In this document: piece after piece, positions 9,450 to 55,705 of the stretch
How the letters are laid out: the number at the start of each line of letters is the position of its first letter
Position numbering within the stretch: the stretch's first letter is position 1
From: Desulfonauticus sp.
Lineage (GTDB): Bacteria; Desulfobacterota; Desulfovibrionia; Desulfovibrionales; Desulfonatronovibrionaceae
Assembly: GCA_030950395.1 (NCBI GenBank)
Contig: JAUZRP010000012.1
Span: forward strand, 1,048-65,047
Direction: 5' to 3'
DNA: 64,000 nt
Program-made: the position numbers and the translations under genes
The notes under the pieces: generated by a model
What the model was told of the DNA's origin: nothing
Seen by the model: only the letters and a program-made list of their open reading frames with translations
Databases searched by the model: none

Positions 9450-10139
9450 CTACTGACCAGAATTAACGATTTCTTTTATCTCTTGAAGTCCTACTGTCCT
9501 TCCATCTTCTAATCGTAACACCGTGCCTGTGTTACCAGTCTGAACCCCAGCCACTTTTCCACTAACCTGAGTATCCACCAACACTGGTTGACCATTTACG
9601 CCTTCTGCTGCAAACCTTACGGTATATACACCATCAGGAGCATTATTGCCTGTAAAATCTTTTCCATCCCAATGAAATTCGTAATCTCCAGGTTGGCGAG
9701 TCCCTAAACTTTCTGAATAAATTATATTGCCAAACTGATCAAAAACATTCACATACACACTTTTTGCCAAATCGTTTAAACTATAATAAACTGTAGAAAC
9801 CTTATCCCCTTGTTTACTCAAACTATCTCCAGCAGCAGTCACTTCTTTCCCAATAAAACTAACTGCTCCTAACATCTGCTGGGAATTATTTGCCTCTACC
9901 AGCTTATTCACTCCTTCAGCCACGTTGCTCATTTGCTCCAAACTAGAAAACTGAGCCAATTGTGCAATAAAGTCCTTATCATCCATAGGATTTAAAGGGT
10001 CCTGATGCTCCAGCTGAGTAACTAATAATTTTAAAAAGTCGTTTTTACCCAATTGTTTTTGATCACCAGTGGCTTTATAACCTTTTTTTTCCAATTCTCT
10101 TTCATAAGAACCAATTAAACCATTTACAGTAGTATCCAT
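9450..10139 (-). CDS. flgD: flagellar hook assembly (capping) protein FlgD
   Basis: LGKNDFLKLLVTQLEHQDPLNPMDDKDFIAQLAQFSSLEQ plus a FlgD Ig-like C-terminal domain. Confidence 0.9.
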   Translation of the reverse strand: MDTTVNGLIGSYERELEKKGYKATGDQKQLGKNDFLKLLVTQLEHQDPLNPMDDKDFIAQLAQFSSLEQMSNVAEGVNKLVEANNSQQMLGAVSFIGKEVTAAGDSLSKQGDKVSTVYYSLNDLAKSVYVNVFDQFGNIIYSESLGTRQPGDYEFHWDGKDFTGNNAPDGVYTVRFAAEGVNGQPVLVDTQVSGKVAGVQTGNTGTVLRLEDGRTVGLQEIKEIVNSGQ

Positions 10140-10157
10140 ATTATGTCTCCTTGTTTC

Positions 10158-11822: not shown

Positions 11823-11915
11823 GGCTACACTCCTTTTGCCTGTAAATAAACAAAAGATGTGCCAAACAAAACAAGAGGTGACCAAAAACTTTGAAAGGAA
11901 ATATTTAGGTAGGTT

Positions 11916-39006: not shown

Positions 39007-39112
39007 AATTAAAAATTCTCCTTAAAGTTGTAACTCTCTTTTTTACAATGTTAACAGGTTGCACAAACAGATTTTTTACTTACAGACGCCAAAATTAGTT
39101 TTATTGGTCAAA

Positions 39113-40402: not shown

Positions 40403-40600
40403 TCAAAGACGAAAAACAAACCTGCTCCATATATCAGGACATTTTATAGCCCAGAGTCTATCACTAACCAAGCCCTAAAAATAAACTTCCGTTGACATTA
40501 ATCTTCACGTTTTCAACTGTAGTTTATATATCAAAAAAACTTATTTCCTGAATTTTATTCTAACATATTGATTTATAAAAATTTTTTTAACAAAAAATTT

Positions 40601-40616
40601 TGGCACACTCCTTGTT
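40601..40616 (+). promoter_or_regulatory. sigma54-type -24/-12 promoter candidate
   Basis: TGGCAC-ACTCC-TTGT compared with the consensus TGGCAC-N5-TTGC: correct spacing, with one mismatch in the -12 element. It lies 38 nt upstream of GTG 40654 (RBS AGGAG at 40641-40645). The operon it heads encodes a sigma54 activator. Confidence 0.55.
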
Positions 40617-40653
40617 ATAAAAAAGGTAACTTTTACAACAAGGAGAAGTAAAA

Positions 40654-41412
40654 GTGTTTTTACTCAGCAAATCTTTTCAAAAAGACGTGAAACAAATACT
40701 AAAACAAACAACTAGTCTAAAAAATATTATTTTTAATATTGATAATTCTTATAATCGTAAATATTATCCTACTAAAAGAAAAATTGACAAAGCAAAAAGA
40801 ATTGTACACGAAGGTAAATCATTGTATGAATTCAAAAAAGCTGCTTATGAAGCAAAAGTTAAAGAATTTAAGTTATGCCTGGATGAATTAATTTTTTCTA
40901 TAGAGAAAATAATTTCTATAGAGAAAAACTACATAATTCAGATACAATCAGAATTTAATGTTCCAGTTGCTCCTAAAATTAGAGAAAGTTATTTGCTAAA
41001 AATATTAAAAATTATAGATAACACTTATACGATAAGAGGAAAAAATATTTTTTGTTTCTATATACAACCTTGGTTAACAATAGATATAATCACCAAATTT
41101 ATAGAAGAAATAGAAAGTTATAAAGCTTTGAAACAAGCTAAATCTTATAAAGAAGAAGTGTGGGTATGGGTAAAAAAAATAAATTCTATTATAAATGAAC
41201 TTGAGTTAAAAAAAAGAGATTTAAAGTTATTAACAAAGTCTGTAAATAAAATAATTAGTCTGGTTTTATCTGCCAAAAACAAAGAAATGGAAAATATTGT
41301 AAGGGAAAATTTTATTAAACCTCTTTTAACAGAACACCTTTTTACTAAAGAACTTAAATTAACTAACGCTAGTATAAAATTAATTAAACAAGTAGAAAAT
41401 TTTAACTTATAA
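40654..41412 (+). CDS. hypothetical Lys-rich protein (252 aa), no recognisable family
   Basis: Long ORF with RBS and GTG start. Very AT-rich. First gene after the sigma54-type promoter. Confidence 0.5.
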   Translation: MFLLSKSFQKDVKQILKQTTSLKNIIFNIDNSYNRKYYPTKRKIDKAKRIVHEGKSLYEFKKAAYEAKVKEFKLCLDELIFSIEKIISIEKNYIIQIQSEFNVPVAPKIRESYLLKILKIIDNTYTIRGKNIFCFYIQPWLTIDIITKFIEEIESYKALKQAKSYKEEVWVWVKKINSIINELELKKRDLKLLTKSVNKIISLVLSAKNKEMENIVRENFIKPLLTEHLFTKELKLTNASIKLIKQVENFNL

Positions 41413-41430
41413 CCAAAAAAGGAGCTAAAA

Positions 41431-41790
41431 ATGAAAAATGAATTGGTTAAATTAGTTAAAACAGAAAAATTACCCAAATCTTTTCCAACAAAAATTAGCT
41501 CTGTATCAAAAAATTTAAAACATAATGATATATCACTTAAAGGTAAAAATATATTACTTTATTTAAAGTATGTTATTAAATATATCGAACATACCAGAGA
41601 AATAAATAAACTCAAAAAAGAACACGATCAAAAAATGTTTCAGCTAAATATGGAAGCTGAAATACGTCATAAAGAGATTGATAAAAAATTTATTTTAAAA
41701 AATAAAATTCTAGATATAATAGAAAAAAATGTAGAAAATATCACTCCAGAAATGTTAGAACAGTATGTAAAAATTTACATAAATAGTTAA
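41431..41790 (+). CDS. hypothetical Lys/Glu-rich, probably helical protein (119 aa)
   Basis: RBS AAGGAG 8 nt upstream of the ATG and an 18-nt gap to the previous gene. No family recognised. Confidence 0.5.
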   Translation: MKNELVKLVKTEKLPKSFPTKISSVSKNLKHNDISLKGKNILLYLKYVIKYIEHTREINKLKKEHDQKMFQLNMEAEIRHKEIDKKFILKNKILDIIEKNVENITPEMLEQYVKIYINS

Positions 41791-41817
41791 AATAAAATCT
41801 GTATAGATAAAGAAAAA

Positions 41818-42129
41818 ATGATTACTATATTAACAGAAATAGTTACATCATTAATAGAAAAATTTGGACATGTAGTTATTTTAGAAATAATTTCTTTTCT
41901 ACTCTCTAAGAAAAAAGAGAAAACAGAACAATTATATAAAATTCAAGAATTTGAGAAGTTTATAGAATTACATGAACAAATCCTAAAAAAGCAATTTATA
42001 AACATAGAACTAAAAGAGAAGATGGCAAAACTTATAGAAAAAAAACTTCAGGAAACAATATCCACAAATGACACACTTACTTTTAAAAGTTTTTTAGAAA
42101 GCTATTATAAACTTTTAACTCAAACTTAA
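41818..42129 (+). CDS. hypothetical small protein (103 aa) with a hydrophobic/amphipathic N-terminus
   Basis: MITILTEIVTSLIEKFGHVVILEIISFLL followed by a charged helical tail. No family recognised. Confidence 0.45.
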   Translation: MITILTEIVTSLIEKFGHVVILEIISFLLSKKKEKTEQLYKIQEFEKFIELHEQILKKQFINIELKEKMAKLIEKKLQETISTNDTLTFKSFLESYYKLLTQT

Positions 42130-42144
42130 GTTAAGGATACAATT

Positions 42145-42978
42145 ATGCATCACAATAAATATTGGTACAAAGTTTTATTTCACAAGGCAGACTTAGATAC
42201 CGTACTCACGGCCAAACTGGCAAGTGTAACCTGCTGGCGATTTTTAACTTCTGTGCCCAAAGCCACAGAGTTTGACCTTTTAGATACTCAGGTCCTATGC
42301 ATAGAAGTTGGTGGTTCTGGACAGGTTAGCCTACACAACTTTGACCATCACGATCCCTTTCACTACTTCCCTCCGGCTTGCAAGCAGGCTTACGACTACT
42401 TTGGGTGGGAAGATAAAAAATGGGAAAAAATAGTTCATTACGTCTGTTTAGTAGATGAGGGTAATCCGGTGGACGTAAACTTTCCTTCTTTATCCAACAT
42501 ATTTTCTGGTATGTGCTTGCTAATAGACGATCCAATAGAGCAGTTTTTAACTGGCCTATCTATTATTGATACAGTGTATGTCAAAGGCTTTGATCCCTTT
42601 CAAGCCCTTCCAGAATTACCAGAATGGAAACACTTTATTTTGGCCAAAGAACAAAACTTAGCTCAATTGCAACAAGACAGTAAAAATATCGTAACATTTT
42701 ACACAAAAACTAATATTTTTTGTGGATTTCTTGAGTCAAATGCGGTAGGAGGGTTTAAAATACTCTATGACAAGGGCTGTGAAGTAGGTGTGTTGTATAG
42801 TCCAAGACAAAACAAGTACACTATCGGCTCTAAACATCTAAATTTAACTAAACTTTTACAACAATTTCAATCTATTGAAGATGGTTGGGGTGGGAGACAA
42901 AACATTTTTGGTTCTCCTTATAGAGGCACTAAATTAACTCCAGCTGAAGTAATCAAGATAATTAAGGAAACGTTATGA
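42145..42978 (+). CDS. compact DHH/DHHA1-like phosphoesterase (NrnA/NrN-like) candidate
   Basis: Motif order resembles the DHH family: FHKADLDTVLTA (H-x3-D-x-D), NFDHHDP (DHH), VCLVDEGN, and C-terminal DGWGGRQNIFGSP (GGGH-like DHHA1 motif). Confidence 0.55.
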   Translation: MHHNKYWYKVLFHKADLDTVLTAKLASVTCWRFLTSVPKATEFDLLDTQVLCIEVGGSGQVSLHNFDHHDPFHYFPPACKQAYDYFGWEDKKWEKIVHYVCLVDEGNPVDVNFPSLSNIFSGMCLLIDDPIEQFLTGLSIIDTVYVKGFDPFQALPELPEWKHFILAKEQNLAQLQQDSKNIVTFYTKTNIFCGFLESNAVGGFKILYDKGCEVGVLYSPRQNKYTIGSKHLNLTKLLQQFQSIEDGWGGRQNIFGSPYRGTKLTPAEVIKIIKETL

Positions 42979-44471
42979 AAAAAAGAGTGTTAATCTCTTA
43001 CACAGGCAATCAAGATCCTCTAAACAAACAGGGGAAAGAGGGTCCTATTCTAACTCTTATAAAAGGGAAAAGATATGAATTTGAAGAAGTATATCTTTTA
43101 TATACCCGTTCAAAGGACAGTAGAAACGATCATCTCGAAACTGCAAAGGCTACCAAAGAAGCTATAAACAAAATCCATCCTCAAATAGAAGTTCACCTCT
43201 TGCCCATAAATACAGATGACCCTTCAGACCACATACTCATTTATAAGTTAACTCAAAAGGCTTTATCTGAAATAAAAACTCGTCTAAATGAAAAAAATAC
43301 ACGTATATTTATCAACATTTCTTCTGGCACCCCTCAAATGCACATAGCTTTTTTTCTATTAGTGGCTAGCCGGTACATTGCAGCCACTATGTTGTACCAG
43401 ACTCCACCTCAATTTGGCGGACAGATAAGAGAAATAATTCCTTGGTGTGAAGATATGCCTTCTATTTTGCCTTCTATTCCCAGAGGAAAACCAGAGTCCA
43501 CCAACATCCCTCTGGAAAATCTTTGTCAGGAAATAGGTCTAAAGGGAAAAAGTCCTGTTTTTTTGAACGCTCTTTTACACGTCCAAAAGTATGCTCCTTA
43601 TGATTTACCTGTAATTATTTTAGGAGAAAGTGGAACAGGCAAGGACCTATTTGCAAGATTAATTCACCTCACCAGTCCCAGGAAAGACAAAAGATTTCTT
43701 GCTTTTAACTGTGCGGCTATCCCAGAAAATTTGGCAGAAAGTGAGCTTTTTGGTTACAAAAAAGGCGCTTTTACAGGAGCTAGCATAGATAGAGATGGTC
43801 TATTTAAACAAGCAGACAGGGGAACTATATTTCTAGACGAGATTGGGGACCTATCTCTAAACTTACAGGCCAAGCTTTTGCGAGTGCTGGAAAATGGAGA
43901 AATTTTACCTATTGGAGCTAAGTGTGTAGAAAACGTTGACGTAAGGGTTATCGCTGCTACTCACAAAAACCTGGAAGATATGGTTAGTCAAGGCAAGTTT
44001 CGAGAAGATCTTTATTATAGGATAAATATTTTAAAAATAGATCTACCACCTCTAAGAGATAGAAAAGAAGACATTCCCGAAATATCCAAACACATTCTAC
44101 AAGAGTTTTGCGAACAAAATCAAATTAAAAAAACCTTTTCTGACCGGGCCCTATCTGCTCTTATGGCCTACCACTGGCCAGGTAACATACGAGAATTAAA
44201 AACGTTTGTGTGGAGAGCCGCTATTGAAGCTGAAGGAGAAGTTATAGATTATAAAGACTTGCAACTCTCTTATTCTTCAGAAAACAACCTCCTTAAAGAA
44301 CTACCTGCAACACCTTATGAAGGTTTTCAGTTAAACGAAGTTTTAGATAGATTAAGGATGTATTACTACAAAACAGCGTTAAAAAAAGCAGGGGGAAATA
44401 AGAGCAAGGCCGCAAGGCTGCTGGGAGTAAGTCCTCAAGCAATCTCTAAAATTTTCAAAAAGGAGGAGTAA
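42975..44471 (+). CDS. RtcR-like regulator: N-terminal CARF-like domain + sigma54-interaction AAA+ domain + Fis-type HTH
   Basis: VLISYTGNQDP...INISSGTPQMHIAFFLL (CARF-like). AAA+ core: GESGTGKD, YKKGAFTGA, IFLDEIGDL, FREDLYYRINI, HWPGNIRELK. C-terminal HTH: KSKAARLLGVSPQAISKIF. Confidence 0.85.
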   Translation: MKKRVLISYTGNQDPLNKQGKEGPILTLIKGKRYEFEEVYLLYTRSKDSRNDHLETAKATKEAINKIHPQIEVHLLPINTDDPSDHILIYKLTQKALSEIKTRLNEKNTRIFINISSGTPQMHIAFFLLVASRYIAATMLYQTPPQFGGQIREIIPWCEDMPSILPSIPRGKPESTNIPLENLCQEIGLKGKSPVFLNALLHVQKYAPYDLPVIILGESGTGKDLFARLIHLTSPRKDKRFLAFNCAAIPENLAESELFGYKKGAFTGASIDRDGLFKQADRGTIFLDEIGDLSLNLQAKLLRVLENGEILPIGAKCVENVDVRVIAATHKNLEDMVSQGKFREDLYYRINILKIDLPPLRDRKEDIPEISKHILQEFCEQNQIKKTFSDRALSALMAYHWPGNIRELKTFVWRAAIEAEGEVIDYKDLQLSYSSENNLLKELPATPYEGFQLNEVLDRLRMYYYKTALKKAGGNKSKAARLLGVSPQAISKIFKKEE

Positions 44472-45982
44472 TGGGGTATTATTTTAGTTTGCAATATTCA
44501 GGTATTCAAAAAACTGTTTTTAGGTACAATAGACTGTGGTCTATTGCAGGCATAAGCCAGATATTATCCCACTTAAATGAGCTGGAGATGGTAAGTATTG
44601 CTCAAAACCACGGGGGCAGTGTGGTAGTTGCTGGAGGTGGTAAGTTTACAGCTCGCTTTCCTGAAAGAGAAAAAGCTCTTTTAGCCAAAGAAGAGATCAT
44701 AAAAGTACTTTCTATCACACTCCCCATGCTAGAATTTCAATCCAGTCCTGTATTAGAAGGGAACTCGTTCCAAGAGATAAAATACGGCTACAGTGCAGAG
44801 AATACAGTTGTGCCTGGCATACTGGATTACTTAAACGAAGCCAAAAAATCTTATAGAGGATTTGGCTATTCTTTTAATCCCCACCTTAAGCTCTGCGACG
44901 AGTGTAGTGAATATCCTGCAGAGCACAAAGACAAAGAAGAAAAATTATGTAGGATTTGTTTTTGGGCCAAAAAAAATGCAAAACTAAACTACTCTCGCCA
45001 ATTTAGCTCTGATTGCACCACCTTAGAAAAGATTTATTTTAACTTTTTGGCTGACTTTGATCAAGAAGTGCAGGTTCCTTTAAACCTAGAAGATATATTT
45101 CCAGAAGGCCAGGAAAAGAAAAGGATTGCGGTGTGGGTCTCAGATTTGAACAACATGAATCAAAAAGTCCCCATTTGGTTAAATCAAAAAGAAGACGAAA
45201 TAAAAGCAACTTTTGACAAAGTAACTCAGATAAACGTGGACATTATCACTCAGGCCCTAAAAGATACCTTTCAAAACATTGTGGTTCAAAGAGAAGATAG
45301 CTATTTTATTCCTTTTCGCCTCATCGTGGCAGGAGGAGACGACCTATGCATTGTAATGGATGCCAAGTACGTGCTTAAATTTGCCACTAATCTCCATTAT
45401 GCTTTAAAAAACAAAATTGCTCAGTTAGATAAAGGACATCCTCTCCATCCTCAGTGGTTACAAGCACGTTCTAAAGACAACGGGAAGCTGGGACAATACT
45501 GTTTTGGAGCAAGCTTTGTAATTACAGACTTACATACAGCCTTTATAGACGTCCATAGATTAGCTGAAGACTTAATGAGGGAAGCCAAAGAAAACACAGA
45601 AAGAAAAGACAATTCTATAAATTGGCAAATCCTTTCTACAGATTTTTCTCCTGCAGAAAGTCTCCTCAACTTTCACAAGCCGTTGTTTTTTGAATCCCAG
45701 GATGAACAACCTGGTTTTTGTGATTATTATAAGTTATGTCAAAAATATCACACCCTATCGTCTTCAAAAATTTTTCAATTAGCAGACATACTGATGGAAC
45801 ATTTTGCTACAGGTGCAGACCTAAAAAAACAGATCCTTTCTTTACCTCAGATCTGGAAAAAGGGGCACGTATTAAGAAAACTTTTGCAAGAAAAAATTTT
45901 ACAAGATAACAACCACAATTTTCATCCCCAAAGATTAGCTAGTCTTTTAGAACTACTAACCCTCTATAAGGAGGCCAAATAA
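44471..45982 (+). CDS. cas10: minimal Cas10 (503 aa) lacking an HD domain, with an intact cyclase Palm (GGDD)
   Basis: Starts directly at the Cas10 Palm1 signature (LQYSGIQKTVF, VVAGGGKFTARF). Zn knuckle CDEC...CRIC. Palm2 VWVSDLNNMN and RLIVAGGDDLCIVMD, then FGASFVITDLH...LMREAK. Confidence 0.8.
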   Translation: MGYYFSLQYSGIQKTVFRYNRLWSIAGISQILSHLNELEMVSIAQNHGGSVVVAGGGKFTARFPEREKALLAKEEIIKVLSITLPMLEFQSSPVLEGNSFQEIKYGYSAENTVVPGILDYLNEAKKSYRGFGYSFNPHLKLCDECSEYPAEHKDKEEKLCRICFWAKKNAKLNYSRQFSSDCTTLEKIYFNFLADFDQEVQVPLNLEDIFPEGQEKKRIAVWVSDLNNMNQKVPIWLNQKEDEIKATFDKVTQINVDIITQALKDTFQNIVVQREDSYFIPFRLIVAGGDDLCIVMDAKYVLKFATNLHYALKNKIAQLDKGHPLHPQWLQARSKDNGKLGQYCFGASFVITDLHTAFIDVHRLAEDLMREAKENTERKDNSINWQILSTDFSPAESLLNFHKPLFFESQDEQPGFCDYYKLCQKYHTLSSSKIFQLADILMEHFATGADLKKQILSLPQIWKKGHVLRKLLQEKILQDNNHNFHPQRLASLLELLTLYKEAK

Positions 45983-45983
45983 A

Positions 45984-47825
45984 ATGTACTTTTCTAAAGG
46001 AAAACTAAAGGTAAAAGCCAGAGGTTACTGGTTTACCCTTGGAGGAGAAAAAGGTTCTTTTGGCTATTACCCCCACCTCAAAGATAAAGACAACTTGCCC
46101 ATATATCCCGATACTCAACTCAAAGGGAATATCAGAGATGGGCTAGAATGGTACTTAAAACTGCAAGGAACATCTTTACCCCAAGAAATAGTTTCTCATA
46201 TTTTTGTAACAGATTTACGCTTGTCTAACCCTGCTCTCTGGCAAAGAGATAGATTTCAAGTCAAGCCAAGAATTGCTATTGACGACACGAGCCACACCGT
46301 TCAGGAGCATAATCTAGCCTTTATGGAACTGGCTTATTTAGACGGTTTAGAACTAGAAGCAGACGTTTATTTAGGTTATATTTCAGACCAAAGCCAGCAT
46401 CAACAACTAAAAAATTGGCTGAAAAAAAGTGTTCAGCTTATGCCTGACATGGGAAGTTTTCGTTCACGGGGAATGGGCAAAGGAGATTATAAACTCCAGT
46501 GGCTAGAAGACAAAACCATCTCGCCCACTCTAGAAGATATAGAAGTGGAAGCCAAACCTTTATTGTATTGTCTAAAAAACCTAACCAATTTTAGAAACAA
46601 ACCTATAGAACCAGATAGTTACAATTATGTTCCAACTCTCCGCTATATTACTGCCCATCAATTAAGGTCGTGGTTTATCAAAACTTATTACCAAATTTTT
46701 CACGAATGGCCAGACATTACAGAGCTGGCCAAAATTAACTTTCCCTATCTCTATCCTTGTGAGGTGAATAAAGACCAATTTTATCTGGCTTATCCTGCAG
46801 CCATGACCAGTTTTATAGAGCACTCAAACAAAGGACCACAAATAATAGATTTTTTATCTCATCCCCAAAAAAATCCAATCCACGATCACCCCGCCATTAC
46901 TAGAGTCAAAAGAAAAGCAATCCCTGATCACATTTATGTTGCACCAGGTGAGCAACCTAAAGTTGTAGAAATTTCTATTGGCAAACGGATCAGAAATAGT
47001 TTGAACGATAAATTTTCGTCTTTAGAGGAAAAAGGACTTTTTGTGCAAGAATTTATCCCGGCCAACACTATGTTTGGAGGAATTATCTCGTTTTCTAAAC
47101 CGCTAGAAAAATGTTTTGGGCAAAGGTTTCAATATATCCTTTGCAACATAACACCCACATTAAAAGGAAGCTTATTTGCACCTTACCTACAAATTTACAA
47201 CGACCATACCCAAAAAAATAGCCAGCATCATCTGGTAATAGCCCCTATACCTTACAGGCCCTTGCAATCCCAATCATCAAGATGGATAGTGCAAGAAATA
47301 GAAGGCAGAAAAAAGGTCATTCAGGACAGAGTTTCTTTAATAAAAATTGGCACTAACAGAAGTTATAACGTTTACTTAAAAAGACCTAAAAGACCACGCA
47401 TAGTTATTCAACAAGGCTCTGTATTGCTCGAAGAAATTAATGGCCAGACAATACCCTGGAGAGGTTTGTCTAAGAGCGTGCTTCTGTCTAAGTCCTCTAC
47501 TCTGGAAACCAAAAATTCAAACGCCCAACCAGATGCTAAAGCAGTTGATCTGGCCCAAAAACTCTATCAAGAACTTAGTGCATCTCATCTTGGATTTTTG
47601 AGAAACTTTTTAAACAAAAAAATACCCCTACCCACCCTAAAAGACATCTCCCTGGATAGGCAAGACAAGTACACCAGAAAAGGGAAGACCAACCTTAGTT
47701 TACTTTACGCGCATCTTGCCTCATTAATAGACAAAGATAACTCAGGAGAAAGTTTGAGAAAGTTCGTAGAGGATTTAGTGGCAGAAATAAGAAGCCTAAA
47801 ATGGCAAAAGGAGTATAAACAATGA
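45984..47825 (+). CDS. multidomain RAMP protein (Cas5/Csx10-like and/or Cas7-like N-terminal modules, helical Cas11-like C-terminus)
   Basis: RAMP motif LPIYPDTQLKGNIRDGLEW and G-rich loop MGSFRSRGMGKGDY. A second RAMP-like LRYITAHQLRSWF. The last ~110 aa look all-helical. Domain identities are inferred. Confidence 0.55.
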   Translation: MYFSKGKLKVKARGYWFTLGGEKGSFGYYPHLKDKDNLPIYPDTQLKGNIRDGLEWYLKLQGTSLPQEIVSHIFVTDLRLSNPALWQRDRFQVKPRIAIDDTSHTVQEHNLAFMELAYLDGLELEADVYLGYISDQSQHQQLKNWLKKSVQLMPDMGSFRSRGMGKGDYKLQWLEDKTISPTLEDIEVEAKPLLYCLKNLTNFRNKPIEPDSYNYVPTLRYITAHQLRSWFIKTYYQIFHEWPDITELAKINFPYLYPCEVNKDQFYLAYPAAMTSFIEHSNKGPQIIDFLSHPQKNPIHDHPAITRVKRKAIPDHIYVAPGEQPKVVEISIGKRIRNSLNDKFSSLEEKGLFVQEFIPANTMFGGIISFSKPLEKCFGQRFQYILCNITPTLKGSLFAPYLQIYNDHTQKNSQHHLVIAPIPYRPLQSQSSRWIVQEIEGRKKVIQDRVSLIKIGTNRSYNVYLKRPKRPRIVIQQGSVLLEEINGQTIPWRGLSKSVLLSKSSTLETKNSNAQPDAKAVDLAQKLYQELSASHLGFLRNFLNKKIPLPTLKDISLDRQDKYTRKGKTNLSLLYAHLASLIDKDNSGESLRKFVEDLVAEIRSLKWQKEYKQ

Positions 47826-49174
47826 TAGGGAAAAAATGTGTCTTAAAAGTCAATTTAGATTTTTCGTTAACCACTCCTCTTATTATTAAGTCAGAAAGTA
47901 ACGAAGACTACATTGATGCCAAAATAGATCGAACTCCAGATGGAAAACTCTACATCAACGGTTACGTATGGGCCTCGTTATTTAGACGAGCAGCAAAAAG
48001 ACTAAAAAAAGTGCCACATTTATTTCACAAATTAGGCAACTACGAAGGCAAAGAAGGCGTATCTCTATTTTGGTTTGAGGGCTCTAGCGTAGATCTAGTG
48101 ATTACGGACATAAGACCGGGCCTAAACATCCACAGACGATATGGCAGCGCGCTAGATGGAGCTCTTTACTTTGAAGAAATCGTGCCCTGTGGAATGCGTA
48201 TCCCTCTTAGTTTTAAAGTATTTGCTGACGAGTTTAACGAACTTGAGTCAGTTCTAAAAACTTTGCAGGAGGCTATATACATTATTGACTCGGGCATAGA
48301 AAATATTGGCGGAAATTGGAGTTATGGTCTAGGGAGATTAAAGTTTGTTTCTGGTACTTATCAAATGCTAGACCTTAGCCGGGACAGTGACCTCGAACTC
48401 TTAGCAGAAGACAAAATTTTAAAAAATTCTTTTCACCCCCAAGCAGGCAAGGTTCAACAAGTCTGGATAAAATACAAGGTCAAAGCCAGAATAGAAAAGG
48501 GCCAATTATTGGCTATTCATTCCGAACTTCCACCTTTGGATTTAACAAATCAAAAAGCCAAACTCCTTCCAGAAGAACCTGACCACTACGTTTTTCGCTC
48601 TTTTGTGCTGGAAGACGGCTCTCCCAAACAAAAATTTGTCCTGCCAGGAAAAATCATTAGACAGGCTTTGTTTTCTCAACACATTGAAAGAAAATTAAGG
48701 ACCCAAGGGGAGCACGTCTGCTCTTTAAGAGGAGACAAGTGCACTTGCGCCATCTGTGAGCAAGCGCGCTTAGAAAAGCCAAAACTAAAAAAAGCCCCAG
48801 ATTGTCAATGCAAAATCTGCCGCTGGTTTGGATCTACTGACTCCAGAGGGATTATAGCTGTTACAGACGCGGTTATAAAAAATGCCTCAACTGTAGATCT
48901 TAGAAGGATCCAACTCTGTGAACACTCTATGCAAAACATAAACTTATTTTTTGAAGAATACTTAACCCAAGGCAACTTTGAGTTTGAAATACTGATAGAC
49001 CAACCTAAAGATAACCAGGAACTTTTAGAAAATGTAGAGCAAGTGCTAGAGGAAATGACAGCCCAAAATGCTCCCCCAGGATGGTACAGATTGGGCAATT
49101 CTACTACGTGCGCTGGTAGCATAAGAGTATTAGAATGGAATAAAGAGCAAGTGCAGGAGGAAGAAAATGCATGA
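47822..49174 (+). CDS. fusion of two Cas7 (Csm3/Cmr4-like) RAMP domains
   Basis: Module 1: TTPLIIKS...IDAKIDRTPDGKLYINGYVWASLFRR and NIGGNWSYGLGRLKF. Module 2: FVLPGKIIRQALFS, Cys cluster CSLRGDKCTCAIC...CQCKICRWFGSTDSRG, and GWYRLGNSTTCAGSIRV. Confidence 0.7.
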   Translation: MIGKKCVLKVNLDFSLTTPLIIKSESNEDYIDAKIDRTPDGKLYINGYVWASLFRRAAKRLKKVPHLFHKLGNYEGKEGVSLFWFEGSSVDLVITDIRPGLNIHRRYGSALDGALYFEEIVPCGMRIPLSFKVFADEFNELESVLKTLQEAIYIIDSGIENIGGNWSYGLGRLKFVSGTYQMLDLSRDSDLELLAEDKILKNSFHPQAGKVQQVWIKYKVKARIEKGQLLAIHSELPPLDLTNQKAKLLPEEPDHYVFRSFVLEDGSPKQKFVLPGKIIRQALFSQHIERKLRTQGEHVCSLRGDKCTCAICEQARLEKPKLKKAPDCQCKICRWFGSTDSRGIIAVTDAVIKNASTVDLRRIQLCEHSMQNINLFFEEYLTQGNFEFEILIDQPKDNQELLENVEQVLEEMTAQNAPPGWYRLGNSTTCAGSIRVLEWNKEQVQEEENA

Positions 49175-49610
49175 TTTTCAACAAGGTTACTTAATTTATG
49201 CTGTAAAACAAACCTCAAACTGTCCAGAAATAGACTTGAAACAGTGGGACAATGGCTACGTTGCCTTTTCTAATAGAGAATATCCGCTTCAAGAATTAAA
49301 ACAACTGGACCTTAAACAAATGCTTAACCAAGATCAACTACCTAAAGACGCTGAAGGTTACATAATGGAAATCGATTTGTGGAGAAAAACAGACCACGTT
49401 TACGAAGAAATCTCCATAGAGCGCGAAGATACCCTCTTTTTTATTCAACATTGGCAACTTTTTACTCAAAAAATAGATGGGGCAGATCTATGTTTTTACA
49501 GATGTGCCTCTACCGCGCCCAGAGCAAACAGTATATTTAACCAATTAAAGAGCATAGAAGTTGTTGTACCAGACAAAAGATTACACTTTTTCATAACTAA
49601 ACCAGATTAA
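49167..49610 (+). CDS. unrecognised 147-aa protein embedded in the effector module
   Basis: Overlaps the upstream gene by 8 nt, so it is probably translationally coupled. No RAMP or Cas11 motif recognised. Confidence 0.5.
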   Translation: MHDFQQGYLIYAVKQTSNCPEIDLKQWDNGYVAFSNREYPLQELKQLDLKQMLNQDQLPKDAEGYIMEIDLWRKTDHVYEEISIEREDTLFFIQHWQLFTQKIDGADLCFYRCASTAPRANSIFNQLKSIEVVVPDKRLHFFITKPD

Positions 49611-49648
49611 AAATCCCTCAAACACCCCAAAATAAATGGAGGCCAATT

Positions 49649-51526
49649 ATGCGTGGTAAAGGTAAAAAAAACAAAAAAAATAAACATGTTATCCCTGCAG
49701 GGACAGCTCCCTACAAATTTATAAAAAGAAAAAAGCCTAACAAAAAACCTGCTACTGAATTTTTGGACAAACTAGAGCATTTTGACCTCGCCCTAGAAAT
49801 AGAATGGAAGGCGATTACCCCTATAGCTTTAAACCCTTGCCTCGATTGGAACGAACCAGCCAACAATCCTCAATTGGATAACGATGCCTATTATGCGGGA
49901 TACAATAGACGGTGGCTCACTGTAGAAGATAGAGCGGCCATAAGTCCTTTTACTGTAAAGTCCGCCATTGCCAATGCCTATGCCAACCTCATGGGCGGAT
50001 GTTATCGGGTCAATACTATAGTAGAAAGGCACAAAGAACTCCTACAGGGACAATACCCTTATGATGGGTCCTACAAAAGGTACAGGGTAGCAATGGATGG
50101 AAGCTCAAAACCGGGCATAATTCTAGACATAAAAGAGCTGGACGATGGCTCGCGCTATGTAAAAATTTTACCTGTAAAAGAATATTACCTGGATACCGAG
50201 CCAAACATGCCCTTAAAACGAGGTCAAGAGGTCAAACTGAGAATTGTAAAAGAAAGAGGATATAAACCAGATATCGTAGTGTTAGATCCGACCTCTTCCT
50301 TTAGTGCTATTTATCACGGTCCCTATGCTTATGGAATGAATCTTTCCAATCCTAAAGGACCAAAACACAAACACAGATTTTACCAAGCCAAAGGTAAAGC
50401 CGTAGAGGGCATAATTGCCAAAGAAAATTTTTATTCCAAAGACAAGCTAATGCAGTGTGTTTACGTGGGAGGACGAGATCAGAACAATCAAAAAATCCCT
50501 CATTGGTATCAAAATTTATCAGACTTAAAAAAAGGTGATTTTATTTATTACGAAGAATTTAATAACAAGGTTCAACATCTGGGGAAAAACTTTCTCTTTA
50601 AGACCATATTTTTGCATCAAGATACCATACCAGAAGGACAGGAAACCTGTAGCGATCCCAACCAGTTGTGTCCGCGCTGCAGACTTTTTGGACTGACCTT
50701 TCAAAAGGAAGAAAAAGAGGCCACTGGCTTAAAAGGCAGGTTCAAAGCCTGTACCCTGATTTCAGACTTTGTGATTAACAGAGAAAAGTCAGATAGAGCA
50801 AAAGTGCCGGTATATATAGAAAGGGACAAACAGAGCAAGCAGGAAAAGTTGGATATAACTATCTTAAAAACCCCAGAGGGCAGGGAAATAGGTCGGCAAT
50901 TTCTTTTTCCTGTGCAAGGACCACCCAAGCCCAACAAAAGAGATGTAAACGGTTATTATGAAAAAGATACAGGCTACCTAAAAGGGGCAAAAGTTTATAA
51001 GCACACAGAAGAAAATCACTTTACTGCCCTCTTAGAGGAAATAAACCACACGTTTAAAACAATTAAAGACCAAAAAGAAGCCAGTTCGTACAGATTGCGC
51101 AATTGGGGAGAGGTATTGTACGCTGGGGCGAGTTTTCGGGGTGTTGTAGGATTGGAAAATAGCACGTTGGACGAAGTCTGTGGGATAATATTTTTATTGC
51201 ACACTCCATTTTCTAAGCACGGATACAAACTTGGTCTGGGCAAGGCTTTTGGTCTTGGCTCTGTGGAGTCTTATGTAAAAAAAATCTGGATAAGGACGCC
51301 CCAGGATTATACCTGGAAAAGCTTTGAGGTGGAGGATGATCTATTACGATCTATTGAAAAAGCTGGTTTAAAAGATCTGACAGCTGGGCTGCAAAAGTTA
51401 AAACAAGCTGACAACATGTTGCAACGCATAAATTCCATTCAGGACAAGGCAGATAAGTTACGATTTCCCCCCCCAGGTCTTACGTATTGGAAAAATTTTA
51501 ATCAAATGCAGCAGAGGAAAAAATGA
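49649..51526 (+). CDS. Cas7-family RAMP protein with a large insertion (Csm5/Csx19-like position)
   Basis: AISPFTVKSAIANAYANL (RAMP helix motif), CPRCRLFGLT and the G-rich loop GYKLGLGKAFGLGSVE. A Lys-rich N-terminal tail is also present. Confidence 0.65.
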   Translation: MRGKGKKNKKNKHVIPAGTAPYKFIKRKKPNKKPATEFLDKLEHFDLALEIEWKAITPIALNPCLDWNEPANNPQLDNDAYYAGYNRRWLTVEDRAAISPFTVKSAIANAYANLMGGCYRVNTIVERHKELLQGQYPYDGSYKRYRVAMDGSSKPGIILDIKELDDGSRYVKILPVKEYYLDTEPNMPLKRGQEVKLRIVKERGYKPDIVVLDPTSSFSAIYHGPYAYGMNLSNPKGPKHKHRFYQAKGKAVEGIIAKENFYSKDKLMQCVYVGGRDQNNQKIPHWYQNLSDLKKGDFIYYEEFNNKVQHLGKNFLFKTIFLHQDTIPEGQETCSDPNQLCPRCRLFGLTFQKEEKEATGLKGRFKACTLISDFVINREKSDRAKVPVYIERDKQSKQEKLDITILKTPEGREIGRQFLFPVQGPPKPNKRDVNGYYEKDTGYLKGAKVYKHTEENHFTALLEEINHTFKTIKDQKEASSYRLRNWGEVLYAGASFRGVVGLENSTLDEVCGIIFLLHTPFSKHGYKLGLGKAFGLGSVESYVKKIWIRTPQDYTWKSFEVEDDLLRSIEKAGLKDLTAGLQKLKQADNMLQRINSIQDKADKLRFPPPGLTYWKNFNQMQQRKK

Positions 51527-53568
51527 TTTCTTTAGAACCCTTGTATTTTTTACATTGCACGTTTCAGGTAGTAGAGTCTATTCACAACTTGCCTTACTTT
51601 ACGGGGCAACACTGGTCTGGTTTATTGCGAGACGTGTACAGAGGACTATTTGACGAGTCTATGCCAGACACAATAGCTGTCATTCCCTACGAAACAGGTC
51701 TATCTTCTATACTTGAAGGTTCCAGGGTTTCTATTTTACTCAAAGTTCCTGCAGCCTTACTAGAGCAGATTAAAAAAGTTTTATTGGCTTTACCTCAATT
51801 TTCACACCTCAAAGGGCATCTTGTGCCCCAGAAGAGAATTGTGCTGGAAAAGGTCATTTGCGCGCTTTCTCAAAAAGAACTTTTTCTTGAAGAACCAGAA
51901 ACTTTTCAAATCAAACACGTGGAGTCAGCTGTACAGCAGTTAAGGCAATCTAAAACCATTACCCTTATGTTTTATACTCCTCTAAGACTTTCTAGACCTG
52001 CAGGCACAAAGGAAAAAGGACACAACTTTATAGATAGCGACTTTTTGTGCAACCCTTTAGCTGGGGTTATATTTTTGGAAAAGTTTATTTCCTCTATAAG
52101 AAATATATCTTTTACTGCCCCAAATAGCCAATGTTCTCTTGAGCCCGGAGCTATTTTTTGGATAGATACCAGTTACAATAGCCTCAATACCAAAACCATA
52201 GGAGGAATAATAGGCAAAGTAAAATTGACCAACGTAGATCAAAATTTGTTTTTACCTCTCGTTTTGGGACAATACACAGGAGTTGGCAAAAACAACAGCT
52301 TTGGACTGGGATATTACACCATAAAAGAAGTGCCCAACCTATTTCCCTTTGTTTTGTCCAACAATCCCTTTGGATCTGACTTTGATCCTAACCGTCCATT
52401 TTCTTCTCTAAACTTAAGACAGCTTAAGAGTGTAAGGTTTCCATGGATAAAAAACAATTGTTTTCAAGATACATTAGAGCTGGATAGACAGTACAACACC
52501 TTTTCTAAAGAAAAGAAAAAAGACGTTTTACACAGCCTTTTCCCCTTACACCACCATTTACCTCCAGAAGACAAAAAAATAGACCATACGGTGGAGGATC
52601 TGGTCCAAAGAAAACCTATGTTTCTGACCAGATTTGTATCCAGGGTGCGCAGTGAAGGAGAATATCTAGTAATCGAAATGGGCGATAAATTAAAGATAAA
52701 AAATCTTTGGAGCACCATTGGCCACCTTTTTTTGATAGGCAAGCCACCTGTTACCACGGGTATAATCTACAAAGCCATGCAATGCGGGATTCCTGTTACT
52801 TTTATGAACATGATGGGCAAAACTCAGGGACACCTGTATCCAGAAGGTCACGATCTGGCTATTTATACCAACTTACAATTAAAGAGGCAACAGGACAAAG
52901 ACTTTATTCTGGAATTTGCCAAAGAAATAGTCTCTGCCAAAATTCACAACTCTATAGTCATCCTTAGAAGAAACAAACAGAATTACGAGGAGTTAAAAGA
53001 AATTTTAAATTCTATTAACAAGGTCAAAGACATAGACGCGTTAAGAGGTTATGAAGGGATAGCAGCAAAAGCCTATTTTAAAAAGTTTAGAACCCTGATA
53101 GAAACTTTTGGGTTTGAAAACAGAGAATATCATCCTTCTACTGATCCAGTAAACAGCATGCTCTCTTTTTGTTATTCTTTACTTTACAATCGCCTTGCTT
53201 CTATTTTGAGAATAAGAGGTTTAAACCCGAGACTAGGACTGTATCACGCGTCTCGAGGCAGACACGCTGCTTTGGCTTCAGATCTAATGGAAGAATTACG
53301 GCACGTGGCAGAAAGAATAGTATTAAAGATAATTCACAGAAAAGAAATTAAAACAGATCAATTTATTTATAAGGAACAAAAGGGAAAAAAGTATTGTGAG
53401 ATACCAAGAGAGATAATTAGTCTGTTGGTCTATAGATTTGAAGAAGTAATGCATCAAAACAACGCTCTTTATTCAGGAGAGTTGTATTACTTTTTGGATA
53501 AGATGGTTCAACGATTTATTTTATTTTTACAAAACAAAGCACCATATAAGGCAATAAGAATAAGATGA
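51523..53568 (+). CDS. cas1: Cas6-like domain fused to Cas1 (no reverse transcriptase domain)
   Basis: N-terminal ~275 aa end in the Cas6-type G-rich loop GVGKNNSFGLGYYTIKE. C-terminal ~330 aa carry Cas1 motifs (LRGYEGIAAKAYF, STDPVNSMLSFCYSLLY, GLYHASRGRHAALASDLMEELR). Confidence 0.75.
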   Translation: MISLEPLYFLHCTFQVVESIHNLPYFTGQHWSGLLRDVYRGLFDESMPDTIAVIPYETGLSSILEGSRVSILLKVPAALLEQIKKVLLALPQFSHLKGHLVPQKRIVLEKVICALSQKELFLEEPETFQIKHVESAVQQLRQSKTITLMFYTPLRLSRPAGTKEKGHNFIDSDFLCNPLAGVIFLEKFISSIRNISFTAPNSQCSLEPGAIFWIDTSYNSLNTKTIGGIIGKVKLTNVDQNLFLPLVLGQYTGVGKNNSFGLGYYTIKEVPNLFPFVLSNNPFGSDFDPNRPFSSLNLRQLKSVRFPWIKNNCFQDTLELDRQYNTFSKEKKKDVLHSLFPLHHHLPPEDKKIDHTVEDLVQRKPMFLTRFVSRVRSEGEYLVIEMGDKLKIKNLWSTIGHLFLIGKPPVTTGIIYKAMQCGIPVTFMNMMGKTQGHLYPEGHDLAIYTNLQLKRQQDKDFILEFAKEIVSAKIHNSIVILRRNKQNYEELKEILNSINKVKDIDALRGYEGIAAKAYFKKFRTLIETFGFENREYHPSTDPVNSMLSFCYSLLYNRLASILRIRGLNPRLGLYHASRGRHAALASDLMEELRHVAERIVLKIIHRKEIKTDQFIYKEQKGKKYCEIPREIISLLVYRFEEVMHQNNALYSGELYYFLDKMVQRFILFLQNKAPYKAIRIR

Positions 53569-53828
53569 TAGTATTAGTTTGTTATGACATTAGCGACGAT
53601 AAAAAGAGAAATAAAGTTGCTGATATTTTGCTAAAAAAAGGTGTCAGGTTGCAAAAGTCTGTATATCTTTTAAACATAAGAAAAGACAACCTAAAGAAAC
53701 TAATGCACCAACTGCGGCAAAATATAGACCTGTGGGATGCTGTGCTCATCTGTCCAGTGTGCAAAAGATGTCAGTCCATGATTTTGCAGGTAAATTGTGA
53801 TAATCGCGAAAAGGCTATCGTATTTTAA
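53565..53828 (+). CDS. cas2: CRISPR-associated endoribonuclease Cas2
   Basis: MIVLVCYDISDDKKRNKVADILLKKGVRLQKSVYLL. Overlaps the cas1 stop by 4 nt. Confidence 0.85.
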   Translation: MIVLVCYDISDDKKRNKVADILLKKGVRLQKSVYLLNIRKDNLKKLMHQLRQNIDLWDAVLICPVCKRCQSMILQVNCDNREKAIVF

Positions 53829-54134: not shown

Positions 54135-55705
54135 GTTGAAATGACCTCTGAATTCAGAGGGGCTGCGACGAAATTAAAAGGCTCACAGGGAAAGAGCCTT
54201 CTTAAGCTTCTGTGTTGAAATGACCTCTGAATTCAGAGGGGCTGCGACAGCCTCAACGACAGAGCCGTGGGGGACTCCTAAGGTTGAAATGACCTCTGAA
54301 TTCAGAGGGGCTGCGACCGAGGTATTCCACCATCTGGAATACCTCATCCTCAGTTGAAATGACCTCTGAATTCAGAGGGGCTGCGACAATTTTTTACCTC
54401 TTTAATTGTAAGTTTCATGATCTCGTTGAAATGACCTCTGAATTCAGAGGGGCTGCGACCGCTTCAATTTCTTGCTGCTGCTTCAAAGCCTGCAACGTTG
54501 AAATGACCTCTGAATTCAGAGGGGCTGCGACTTAATTTGTTTTTTAAATCTGCCATGTTCTCCTCCTTTTAAAGTTGAAATGACCTCTGAATTCAGAGGG
54601 GCTGCGACTTCGGCCAGTTCTCTTTCCCAGTCGCTCCAATCCCCTTCTGTTGAAATGACCTCTGAATTCAGAGGGGCTGCGACTCTAGCGTAAGGGGGGT
54701 TTTTTTTTGCGTTGTATATAAAAAAGTTGAAATGACCTCTGAATTCAGAGGGGCTGCGACCTTTCCCTTCAGGGATATTGAATACTTTCACCTTTTCCGT
54801 TGAAATGACCTCTGAATTCAGAGGGGCTGCGACTGGCATAAACTTCTTATCTTTGGGAAACAAGCCGAAGTTGAAATGACCTCTGAATTCAGAGGGGCTG
54901 CGACTTCGGTGTGATGCAATTTTTGATAAAGTGATACGATTTTTATGTTGAAATGACCTCTGAATTCAGAGGGGCTGCGACATTTGGATGAGATCCTTTC
55001 GGGTGGTTTTCGTCCGGCTCGTTGAAATGACCTCTGAATTCAGAGGGGCTGCGACATTTTTTGTGCGTTATCGTTTCTGCCTTTTACTACCTCCGTTGAA
55101 ATGACCTCTGAATTCAGAGGGGCTGCGACTGCTTTGGGGATTTCTTTTATCCAGGTCCTTCCCTGCGTTGAAATGACCTCTGAATTCAGAGGGGCTGCGA
55201 CCTCCTTCTTCGTATTCTTCTGTATTTAGATTATTCCATCGTTGAAATGACCTCTGAATTCAGAGGGGCTGCGACGGGAGAACTTTTCCTTTTCGGCTAC
55301 TGAGCAAAAAGTTGAAATGACCTCTGAATTCAGAGGGGCTGCGACATCTTATAATCTATATAGGATGTTTGCTGAGCTGTTTTCAGTTGAAATGACCTCT
55401 GAATTCAGAGGGGCTGCGACTTAAAGGCTGCTGGATTTAAATGGAACGCCCAGCGGTTGAAATGACCTCTGAATTCAGAGGGGCTGCGACAATAGATTTA
55501 TCGGTAATTACAGAGGACCTTATTGTTGAAATGACCTCTGAATTCAGAGGGGCTGCGACCCTTCAGCCAGCTTTGGATGTAGGCTGAGGTGTTTTCGTTG
55601 AAATGACCTCTGAATTCAGAGGGGCTGCGACGAATAATTTCGTGAAAGAAGGTTAAATAATACTCTTCTTGTTGAAATGACCTCTGAATTCAGAGGGTTG
55701 ATTTT
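54135..55705 (+). CRISPR. CRISPR array: 22 repeats of 35 bp, 21 spacers of 34-44 bp
   Basis: Repeat GTTGAAATGACCTCTGAATTCAGAGGGGCTGCGAC. Copies start at 54135, 54214, 54283, 54353, 54425, 54497, 54574, 54649, 54726, 54799, 54870, 54947, 55021, 55095, 55167, 55241, 55311, 55386, 55456, 55525 and 55597, all identical. The last copy (55671-55705) diverges after position 27. Confidence 0.97.

Follow-up and report, generated by a model that had tools for sequence, protein, structure and literature searches.

A predicted sigma-54 promoter heading a type III-D-like CRISPR-Cas operon that includes an RtcR-like activator gene

Does a type III CRISPR-Cas operon carry the gene for the activator of its own promoter? 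The question is raised by a 64,000-nucleotide stretch of a contig from a Desulfonauticus sp. metagenome-assembled genome (JAUZRP010000012.1, positions 1,048 to 65,047; the whole stretch is referred to here as the window), in which a -24/-12 element of the sigma-54 type (40601 to 40615) stands before a string of genes encoding, among others, an RtcR-like enhancer-binding protein and Cas10. A sequence-only reading of the window had proposed that this element drives the whole string, the activator included. Comparative analysis indicates that the feature is real and that this reading is right in outline; the positive-feedback layout is well supported, and the immune system probably raises the expression of its own genes on sensing infection. 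We estimate at about 0.75 the probability that 40601 to 40615 is a working sigma-54 promoter of a self-activating CRISPR operon, with the full circuit proposed below. What is new, as far as can be read from the DNA, is a concrete cis-regulatory architecture for a kind of system that had been predicted.

The promoter and its counterparts in related loci

The element was found exactly where the sequence-only reading had placed it (TGGCAC, 40601 to 40606; ACTCC; TTGT, 40612 to 40615), followed by AAGGAG (40640 to 40645) and the GTG start codon at 40654, which lies 39 nt past the promoter end. It sits within a 251-bp gap between rimO (39059 to 40402) and the first gene of the island and agrees with 9 of the 10 consensus positions, with the correct 5-nt spacing between its two parts. 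The C-to-T change at -12 is the sole departure from TGGCAC-N5-TTGC, as had been stated. Also as stated, the other copies of TGGCAC in the island (40 to 58.5 kb scanned; 43325 and 47348 on the plus strand and 48016 on the minus strand) lack a -12 element.

Across the window, TGGCAC-N5-TTGY occurs twice, against 0.21 expected (two or more in 3 of 100 shuffles). Both copies are intergenic, correctly oriented, and located 28 to 39 nt before a ribosome-binding site and start codon. When one mismatch to TTGC was allowed, six sites were observed against 3.05 expected, which is not above chance, and at least three of the four additional sites lie inside listed open reading frames (ORFs). The motif count is only suggestive because the one-mismatch count is at the chance level, and relaxed counts in the window alone were set aside as uninformative. 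The second TGGCAC-N5-TTGY copy (Table 1) precedes flagellar hook genes, which are standard sigma-54 targets in many bacteria. Since this fliK-flgD-flgE promoter also reads TTGT, these sequences make it very probable that the organism employs sigma-54 and accepts T at -12; T at -12 recurs furthermore at position 8703 of a related locus, L012.

Full-length relatives of the activator (35 to 54% identity) were located on their contigs, and the conserved 277-amino-acid (aa) protein encoded next to the activator was then used as a specific probe, which gave about 35 more loci. Conservation in orthologous loci had been suggested as a check on the promoter, and it was observed: the homologous gene strings of L001-3, L010, L011/12, and L041 all have a -24/-12 element in front of them (Table 1). 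The elements of L041 and L001 have the same GATAA spacer, which suggests that the weaker sites are diverged copies of the canonical one. In 320 kb of related loci, the gene strand has 11 occurrences of TGGCA[CT]-N5-TTG[CTA] and the opposite strand 3, where chance would give about 1.8 on each. It is this comparison with related loci, and not the motif count, that we regard as the decisive support for the promoter. A chance origin of the motif at 40601 to 40615 appears very unlikely.

The non-CRISPR relatives of the activator are encoded directly upstream of type I restriction-modification (R-M) genes, of GmrSD and prokaryotic Argonaute (pAgo) genes, or of RmuC and BREX genes. A perfect TGGCAC-N5-TTGC lies between the regulator gene and the defense genes in L004/5, L006, and L008, while a TGGCAT-N5-ATGC in L009 faces a divergent gene.

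Within this group, the regulator gene directly precedes type I R-M in L004 to L006; in L007 (1 to 11812), it is followed by genes for DUF2130, type I R-M, GmrSD, and a Piwi-domain protein (pAgo), and in L008 (10001 to 21512) by those for RmuC, a helicase, and BREX. A TGGCAC element is found just past the regulator gene in each of L004 to L008.

Upstream dyads, activator, and operon layout

The sequence-only reading had pointed to 40403 to 40600 as the region likely to hold an upstream activating sequence (UAS), and this region contains two candidate dyads (40481 to 40496 and 40512 to 40527). The motif TTNAAC-N4-GTTNAA emerged when the 260-bp regions preceding the promoters beside RtcR-like activators were compared; it was counted at one mismatch or fewer, with distances taken from the dyad centre to the TGG of the -24 element. 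At seven of the eight promoters next to RtcR-like activators (the window, L001, both promoters of L012, L004, L006, and L007), the dyad centre lies 80.5 to 92.5 bp upstream of this TGG, and L010 has, by eye, a two-mismatch dyad at the homologous place. Second copies are present 21 or 31 bp farther upstream in L006 and in the window (40481 to 40496), distances that are whole numbers of helical turns (three for the 31 bp of the window), and the dyad of L001 is shifted by about one turn. In L007, recognition of the dyad came before that of the -24 element: a TGGCAC, whose -12 element is degenerate, was located afterwards, 84.5 bp downstream. The second L012 promoter played no part in defining the motif.

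The dyad is present where the recognition helix of the activator reads LLG[VI][TS]PQA[VI]. Activators with a different recognition helix are encoded in L041, L008, L009, and L059; no dyad at one mismatch or fewer was found in the first three of these loci, and the two in L059 lie inside the regulator gene. The fixed position of the dyad and its covariation with the recognition helix make TTNAAC-N4-GTTNAA a likely, and still candidate, operator of this RtcR-like regulator family. No dyad of this type was found near the fliK-flgD-flgE promoter, which would fit its being served by another activator. The stretch from the dyads to the promoter at 40601 contains an exact match to the consensus of integration host factor (IHF), one of only 4 in the 64 kb against 7.85 expected from shuffles.

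In both the window and L012, the CRISPR repeat (GTTGAAATG...) opens with the six bases of the dyad half-site, GTTGAA. The array in the window contains no full dyad, and the likeness is probably a coincidence.

The activator is 100% identical to a deposited protein. Its GAFTGA motif (residues 267 to 272) is intact, and it is the only GAFTGA protein encoded in the window. Pfam matches comprised RtcR, Sigma54_activat, AAA_lid_14, and HTH_8. The best full-length family was RtcR (NCBIfam, 2e-104; PADLOC RtcR_PspF2--CARF_AAA_HTH, 5e-134), with an NCBIfam RtcR score of 350.3 bits against an equivalog cut-off of 650. Neither rtcA nor rtcB was found at 38 to 58 kb, the activator gene being flanked by the DHH phosphoesterase gene and cas10. 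By sequence, the protein belongs to a paralogous RtcR-like branch and is not RtcR itself.

Twelve codirectional genes follow the promoter, with gaps of -8 to +38 nt. The proposed placement of the activator gene within the block headed by its presumptive target promoter holds, since 42975 to 44471 falls inside this tightly packed run and no convincing terminator interrupts it. No terminator was detected between rimO and the first small ORF (252 aa) or anywhere at 40.3 to 45 kb. At 45 to 58.5 kb, terminator-like sites totaled 18 against 11.9 ± 3.1 in shuffles, i.e., within about two standard deviations, and the plus-strand matches inside the genes of 45 to 53.8 kb have stems of only 5 to 6 bp. 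Same-strand orientation, gene packing, and the lack of a convincing terminator all favor cotranscription of the activator gene from its own target promoter.

The partner gene immediately before the activator gene encodes the 277-aa protein. All 62 of its homologues are annotated as hypothetical, and it had no match in Pfam, NCBIfam, PADLOC, or PDB sequences. Its AlphaFold2 (AF2) model had a pLDDT of 96.6, and the top 21 Foldseek matches in PDB were all of the DHH family; the fold matches were DhhP, NrnA/Pde2, the pApA phosphodiesterase TM1595, and RecJ. The residues of the DxD and DHH motifs (D16, D18, D67, H68, and H69) are invariant in 57 sequences. As modeled, the family is a divergent, unannotated DHH branch that is recognizable only by its fold and motifs. 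Homologues occur in L001, L010, L012, L013, and L031 to L065, consistently beside III-D-like cas10 genes and CARF proteins, and the family is not among the ring-nuclease families discussed in one census that we checked. A DHH-DHHA1 enzyme that degrades cyclic oligoadenylate (cOA) is known in Sulfolobus (PMC7841402), and the modeled 277-aa family is a candidate for a new ring nuclease or linear oligoadenylate phosphodiesterase.

The remaining gene content is that of a type III, III-D-like CRISPR-Cas island as judged by profile matches and motifs: a backbone of RAMP genes, adaptation genes, an array, and a GGDD-containing Cas10. In nine loci, Cas10 keeps GGDD and lacks the HD domain. Synthesis of cOA, and its binding by the CARF proteins of the island, are suggested by similarity to CARF1 models and Csm6 structures. 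The 671-aa protein beyond the array is probably a signal-activated effector; its homologues directly follow the activator gene in L012, L039, and L042.

The cas10 genes here and in nine related loci are only about 500 aa long. A census of type III loci (PMC11229360) dropped Cas10 proteins of fewer than 500 residues, which could leave this subtype undersampled in its shorter or borderline members. The Cas6-Cas1 fusion (51523 to 53568, plus strand) has no reverse-transcriptase domain and occurs also in L001, at 45% identity.

Table 1 Features of the window and -24/-12 elements of related loci
Feature	Position	Strand	Remarks
Sigma-54 -24/-12 promoter	40601..40615	+	TGGCAC-ACTCC-TTGT; predicted transcription start ~40627
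Distal candidate UAS dyad	40481..40496		ATAAACTTCCGTTGAC; 2 mismatches; centre 112.5 bp upstream of TGG, ~-139 from predicted start; from inverted-repeat search
Proximal candidate UAS dyad	40512..40527		TTCAACTGTAGTTTAT; 1 mismatch; centre 81.5 bp upstream of TGG, ~-108 from predicted start
Exact IHF consensus	40561..40573	-	WATCAANNNNTTR (AATCAATATGTTA); centre ~-60
Inverted repeat	40608..40645	+	CTCCTTGTTATAAAA / TTTTACAACAAGGAG; 15 nt, 93% complementary; -12 region pairs with Shine-Dalgarno (SD) sequence
Three small K/E/I-rich helical ORFs	40654..42129	+	252, 119, and 103 aa; 20 to 24% GC; first genes after promoter
DHH/DHHA1-fold phosphoesterase	42145..42978	+	277 aa; stop overlaps activator start; candidate signal degrader
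RtcR-like enhancer-binding protein	42975..44471	+	CARF (NISSGTPQM loop), sigma-54 AAA+ (GAFTGA), Fis-type helix-turn-helix (HTH) (LLGVSPQAI)
cas10, III-D-like	44471..45982	+	503 aa; no HD domain; GGDD intact (VAGGDDL, residues 286 to 292)
Effector-complex genes	45984..51526	+	RAMP/Cas7-like (613, 450, and 625 aa) plus 147-aa protein; RAMP, Csx7-like, TIGR03986, and Cas7_IIId matches
cas6-cas1 fusion and cas2	51523..53828	+	681 and 87 aa
CRISPR array	54135..55631	+	21 identical 35-nt repeats, GTTGAAATGACCTCTGAATTCAGAGGGGCTGCGAC
671-aa protein	55829..57844	+	Weak CARF matches (Csx1-, Card1-like)
Second sigma-54 promoter	11850..11864	-	TGGCAC-ATCTT-TTGT; 28 nt before ATG of FliK-domain protein, then flgD-flgE (genes 7710 to 11822, minus strand)
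-24/-12 element, L001-3			TGGCAT-GATAA-TTGA; 201 bp before 277-aa gene
-24/-12 element, L010			TGGCAT-GATAT-TTGA; before homologous gene string
-24/-12 element, L011/12			TGGCAC-GGAAT-TTGT; -12 identical to that of the window
-24/-12 element, L041			Perfect, TGGCAC-GATAA-TTGCA; in gap between divergent regulator gene and 277-aa gene/cas10/RAMP string

Sequence and comparison provide the promoter, the dyads and their fixed position, the dyad-HTH covariation, the gene content, and the gene packing. From these we propose a three-part layout, in which enhancer dyads at about -139 and -108 and an IHF-induced bend at about -60 would precede the -24/-12 core. The protein that binds the dyads would be the CARF/AAA+/HTH activator, whose gene lies in the same string, 2.4 kb downstream. 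At rest, its CARF domain would prevent AAA+ assembly, as in RtcR. On meeting target RNA, the HD-less, cyclase-competent Cas10 complex would make cOA, which would bind the Csm6-like CARF domain and allow the activator to oligomerize on the dyads; its GAFTGA loops would then contact the sigma-54 holoenzyme, helped by the IHF bend, and the promoter would open. Transcription would proceed through the small AT-rich genes, the DHH gene, the activator gene, cas10, the RAMP genes, and cas6-cas1-cas2. The result would be a self-reinforcing burst, limited by the coinduced phosphodiesterase, which would destroy the signal. The ligand, the direction of CARF control, the continuity of the transcript, and the substrate of the phosphodiesterase are the parts of this scheme that we infer.

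The sequence-only reading had spoken of an autocatalytic amplification of immunity. The self-activating layout that it described stands, with the activator gene inside the run, but plain amplification would be an oversimplification, since a DHH-fold phosphodiesterase, the probable degrader of the signal, is encoded by the gene in translational coupling with that of the activator. Because the operon would coinduce this off-switch, the output is probably a self-limiting pulse instead of simple amplification. A basal source of transcription (rimO read-through or promoters in the AT-rich small ORFs) would also be needed because the activator and the Cas10 complex must preexist. Elsewhere, the activator gene is divergent (L041) or lies upstream of the promoter (L031, L004, L006, L007, and L008), and its inclusion in its own operon appears to be lineage-specific.

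Weighing the circuit against alternatives

Several observations weigh against the self-activating circuit. The -12 element reads TTGT instead of TTGC, whose C is as a rule well conserved. The window was found to contain neither rpoN nor an ihf gene (the RpoN box was sought in a six-frame translation); their presence in the genome is presumed, with the fliK-type promoter and the GAFTGA activator as indirect signs of rpoN. L039, L042, L044, and L047 have no canonical site, and L001 and L010 pair variant GAFTGA loops with a weak -12 element. The dyad is not overrepresented in the AT-rich window (82 against 98 expected at two mismatches). At 7176 to 7191, in AT-rich intergenic DNA, there is a perfect copy, TTAAACACAAGTTGAA, that is flanked by no -24/-12 element in either direction; it was rejected as an operator and probably arose by chance. 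Given the unenriched window and this copy without a promoter, it is position, and not abundance, that carries the dyad signal. The nominal binomial P value for dyad position (~1e-17) is inflated because the motif and the 18-bp zone were defined after some of the sites had been seen; the positional effect is large despite this. Furthermore, 1.5 kb of DNA at 20 to 24% GC, with five plus-strand sigma-70-like matches (40739 to 42143), separates the promoter from the conserved genes. Finally, the ligand need not be a Cas10 product because R-M-linked relatives with the SGTPQM loop have no adjacent cas10 and no cyclase gene (about 10 kb fetched on either side), and the ligands bound by RtcR itself are tRNA halves with a terminal 2',3'-cyclic phosphate (PMC7790460).

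The last two points lead to an alternative in which the circuit stands but the CARF domain senses pieces of RNA with a terminal 2',3'-cyclic phosphate, not cOA. Such fragments could be made when RAMP subunits cleave target RNA, or by the 671-aa CARF nuclease. A ligand of this kind was proposed by Bell et al. for defense-linked RtcR homologues (PMC11090510) and would suit a protein whose best full-length family match, in both NCBIfam and PADLOC, is RtcR. We consider it unlikely for the window, however. The CARF domain matches Csx1/Csm6-type CARF1 models with E values down to 4e-20, and its closest solved relatives, which have the N-x-[ST]-S-G-T-P-Q-M loop in common with it, are Csm6 and Csm6', both activated by cyclic hexaadenylate (cA6). 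The activator gene abuts a GGDD cas10 without another output domain, a DHH phosphodiesterase of the nanoRNase/pApA-phosphodiesterase type accompanies the activator in every case, and the RtcR score of 350 bits is far under the 650-bit equivalog cut-off. A Csx1/Csm6-like CARF domain with Csm6 and Csm6' as its nearest relatives, an adjoining nuclease-less Cas10 with a cyclase motif, and a constant phosphodiesterase-gene partner together point to Cas10-made cOA as the ligand.

A second alternative concerns the output. The stretch encoding the three small ORFs contrasts in composition with the neighboring cas genes (20 to 24% versus about 38% GC). None of the three had a family match above the curated threshold in Pfam, NCBIfam, or PADLOC, where two marginal subthreshold matches were obtained, and no homologues were found in the related loci. 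They resemble a recent insertion that came to separate the promoter from the conserved genes, and their products may be effectors made on induction. The promoter and activator could thus be real with the three small genes, as inducible effector or dormancy proteins, for their main output; self-activation would then be weak or incidental, and the 277-aa, activator, and cas genes would be transcribed mostly from constitutive promoters in the AT-rich stretch or by read-through from rimO. The compositionally foreign stretch with its five sigma-70-like matches would agree with this arrangement, as would the need for a sensor and activator that preexist any response. In addition, promoters of the same type with the same dyad drive single accessory genes (for coiled-coil or membrane proteins) in two related loci, namely, a 335-aa glycine-zipper membrane protein gene in L012 (14447) and the gene of a 219-aa protein in L031 (5888), so the small genes right behind the window promoter may be its primary induced output. 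Nevertheless, we judge it quite improbable that these genes are the main output. At most about 200 bp separate the promoter from the 277-aa gene in L041, L001, and L010, and this space holds no gene or only a small ORF; driving the conserved string therefore looks ancestral. The small ORFs are followed by the 277-aa gene without a terminator and with gaps of 15 to 27 nt, and the sigma-70-like matches (23 against 16.6 ± 3.8 expected) are not clearly above chance.

That the match is fortuitous, the operon being transcribed from a sigma-70 promoter or by rimO read-through and the activator acting elsewhere in the genome, would accord with the off-consensus -12 element, the unenriched one-mismatch sites, and the lack of a terminator after rimO, but is highly improbable in view of a position conserved across four or more independent lineages, dyads at a fixed distance, the IHF site, the dyad-HTH covariation, and a consensus scan that found no plus-strand sigma-70-like site at 40403 to 40653. 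With no plus-strand candidate in this gap and those of the AT-rich ORFs not clearly above chance, a sigma-70 promoter was set aside as an explanation.

The self-activating circuit thus remains our preferred reading. A wider proposal can be attached to it, namely, a cOA-gated sigma-54 switch in type III-D immunity. Here, the Cas10 signal would act mainly via the activator, inducing the whole locus, the activator gene itself, small toxic or dormancy proteins, and a DHH ring nuclease that resets the system, and TTNAAC-N4-GTTNAA would be the operator that the same family uses for R-M, BREX, and pAgo islands. We put forward this proposal tentatively, as somewhat short of an even bet. If true, it would give CRISPR immunity its first pathway from a second messenger to sigma-54.

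Known systems and accessory observations

The arrangement of an activator gene downstream of the sigma-54 promoter that it activates has a counterpart in glnAp2-glnA-ntrBC. There too, two dyad enhancers stand near -140 and -108, some three helical turns from each other. NtrC differs in being controlled by phosphorylation of a receiver domain instead of a CARF sensor and in its physiological context.

The rtcR/rtcBA system of Escherichia coli and Salmonella has the same CARF-AAA+-HTH architecture with GAFTGA. The E. coli rtcBA promoter combines a UAS, an IHF site, and a -24/-12 element in the layout seen here, and RtcR without its CARF domain is constitutively active (PMC9650030); ligand drives RtcR oligomerization (PMC7790460). 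The CARF domain is an inhibitory sensor in RtcR and, as we propose, also here, and L041 has an rtcR-like divergent gene arrangement. In contrast to RtcR, the present activator is not an orthologue, its island has no rtcA or rtcB, its CARF domain is nearer to that of Csm6, and its predicted target is a III-D-like cas operon. Moreover, its gene lies inside its own target operon, and RtcR is not known with a DHH phosphodiesterase partner.

RtcR-like CARF-AAA+-HTH proteins encoded next to R-M were described by Makarova et al. in 2014, who predicted sigma-54 control and called the family not CRISPR-linked (PMC4012209). RtcR homologues were later reported at the head of defense superoperons (Bell et al. 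2024; PMC11090510); between them, the two studies predict such regulators for R-M, CoCoNuT, and other defense superoperons. These regulators belong to the same protein family as the activator of the window (PADLOC RtcR_PspF2--CARF_AAA_HTH), but the papers give gene neighborhoods only, without a promoter or UAS, whereas here the activator gene is placed between a phosphodiesterase gene and cas10, downstream of its own predicted promoter. We found no promoter or operator described in the literature for any defense-linked RtcR-like member. The predicted sigma-54 control now appears confirmed at the DNA level by a perfect TGGCAC-N5-TTGC together with the dyad between the regulator gene and hsdR in L004/5 and L006, and by a promoter before the RmuC/BREX genes in L008. 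What the window adds to a family predicted from neighborhoods for a decade is a complete, testable cis module made up of a pair of dyads, an IHF site, and the -24/-12 core. It also adds a new phosphodiesterase partner that is conserved, and a candidate operator common to relatives linked to CRISPR, R-M, and pAgo; in L008, which is BREX-linked, the recognition helix is of another kind and the dyad is absent.

Type III signaling is known mostly for posttranslational outputs, through nucleases, proteases, and membrane proteins; its known transcriptional outputs are limited to archaeal Csa3 and CalpS. Csa3b, a CARF-HTH protein of Sulfolobales, binds a cOA analogue and activates type III cmr genes (PMC7480081). 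Csa3a and Csa3b thus couple cOA to transcription with feedback on CRISPR genes, as proposed here, but they are one-component CARF proteins with a winged HTH that act on archaeal promoters, with no AAA+ motor, sigma-54, or enhancer geometry, and they are not known to be encoded in the operon that they activate. In CalpL-CalpT-CalpS, a protease activated by cyclic tetraadenylate (cA4) releases a sigma factor (PMC11229360). There too, a type III signal changes transcription through an alternative sigma factor, but by proteolytic release of a factor like those of the extracytoplasmic function (ECF) type, whereas here a prebound sigma-54 holoenzyme would be activated at the expense of ATP. A 2022 review presents Csa3 as the sole characterized non-nuclease CARF effector and does not mention sigma-54. 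Two recent type III censuses set transcription factors aside or omit RtcR/sigma-54 activators, and one of them (PMC11229360) deliberately left regulators out. We found no account of an RtcR-like activator inside a type III locus in our literature search, outside which the 2020 CARF census of Makarova et al. lay. Sigma-54 promoters are essentially silent without their activator, which makes sense for costly or toxic genes, and such a promoter would make an attractive, tightly off, signal-inducible expression switch.

The branch represented by L039 and L042 has a different upstream arrangement. Pairs of dyads 21 to 22 bp apart (L039, 8347 to 8520 and 10961 to 11140; L042, 3404 to 3560 and 5873 to 6030) are followed by a conserved block without GG, GAAAC-N4-TTGCATAAT, and by a three-codon mini-ORF (ATG, AAA or AAG, stop). 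The regulators of these loci have degenerate GAFTGA loops (GAHST and GAFTS). With no GG at -24 and such loops, the two loci were not counted as support for the promoter; their branch may have left sigma-54 dependence.

In L012, the regulator gene is frameshifted (10001 to 11493; 365-aa and 95-aa pieces). The promoter at 14447 is a second perfect sigma-54 promoter of this locus with its own dyad and lies past the CRISPR array, within 13585 to 15505. The L031 site at 5888 was also considered as a driver of an array and rejected, as no tandem repeats were found.

The -12 region of the window promoter can pair with its own SD sequence (Table 1). This hairpin (40608 to 40645) has a predicted energy of -17.6 kcal/mol (z = -2.6), while RNA starting at 40627 leaves the SD sequence unpaired. 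No such hairpin was seen in L001 or L041. The fliK promoter likewise has a -12 region complementary to its SD sequence (11806 to 11880, minus strand; -22.1 kcal/mol; z = -3.1). Both hairpins could form in RNA only on transcripts begun upstream of the promoter and may keep read-through RNA from being translated without hindering translation of RNA begun at the sigma-54 promoter.

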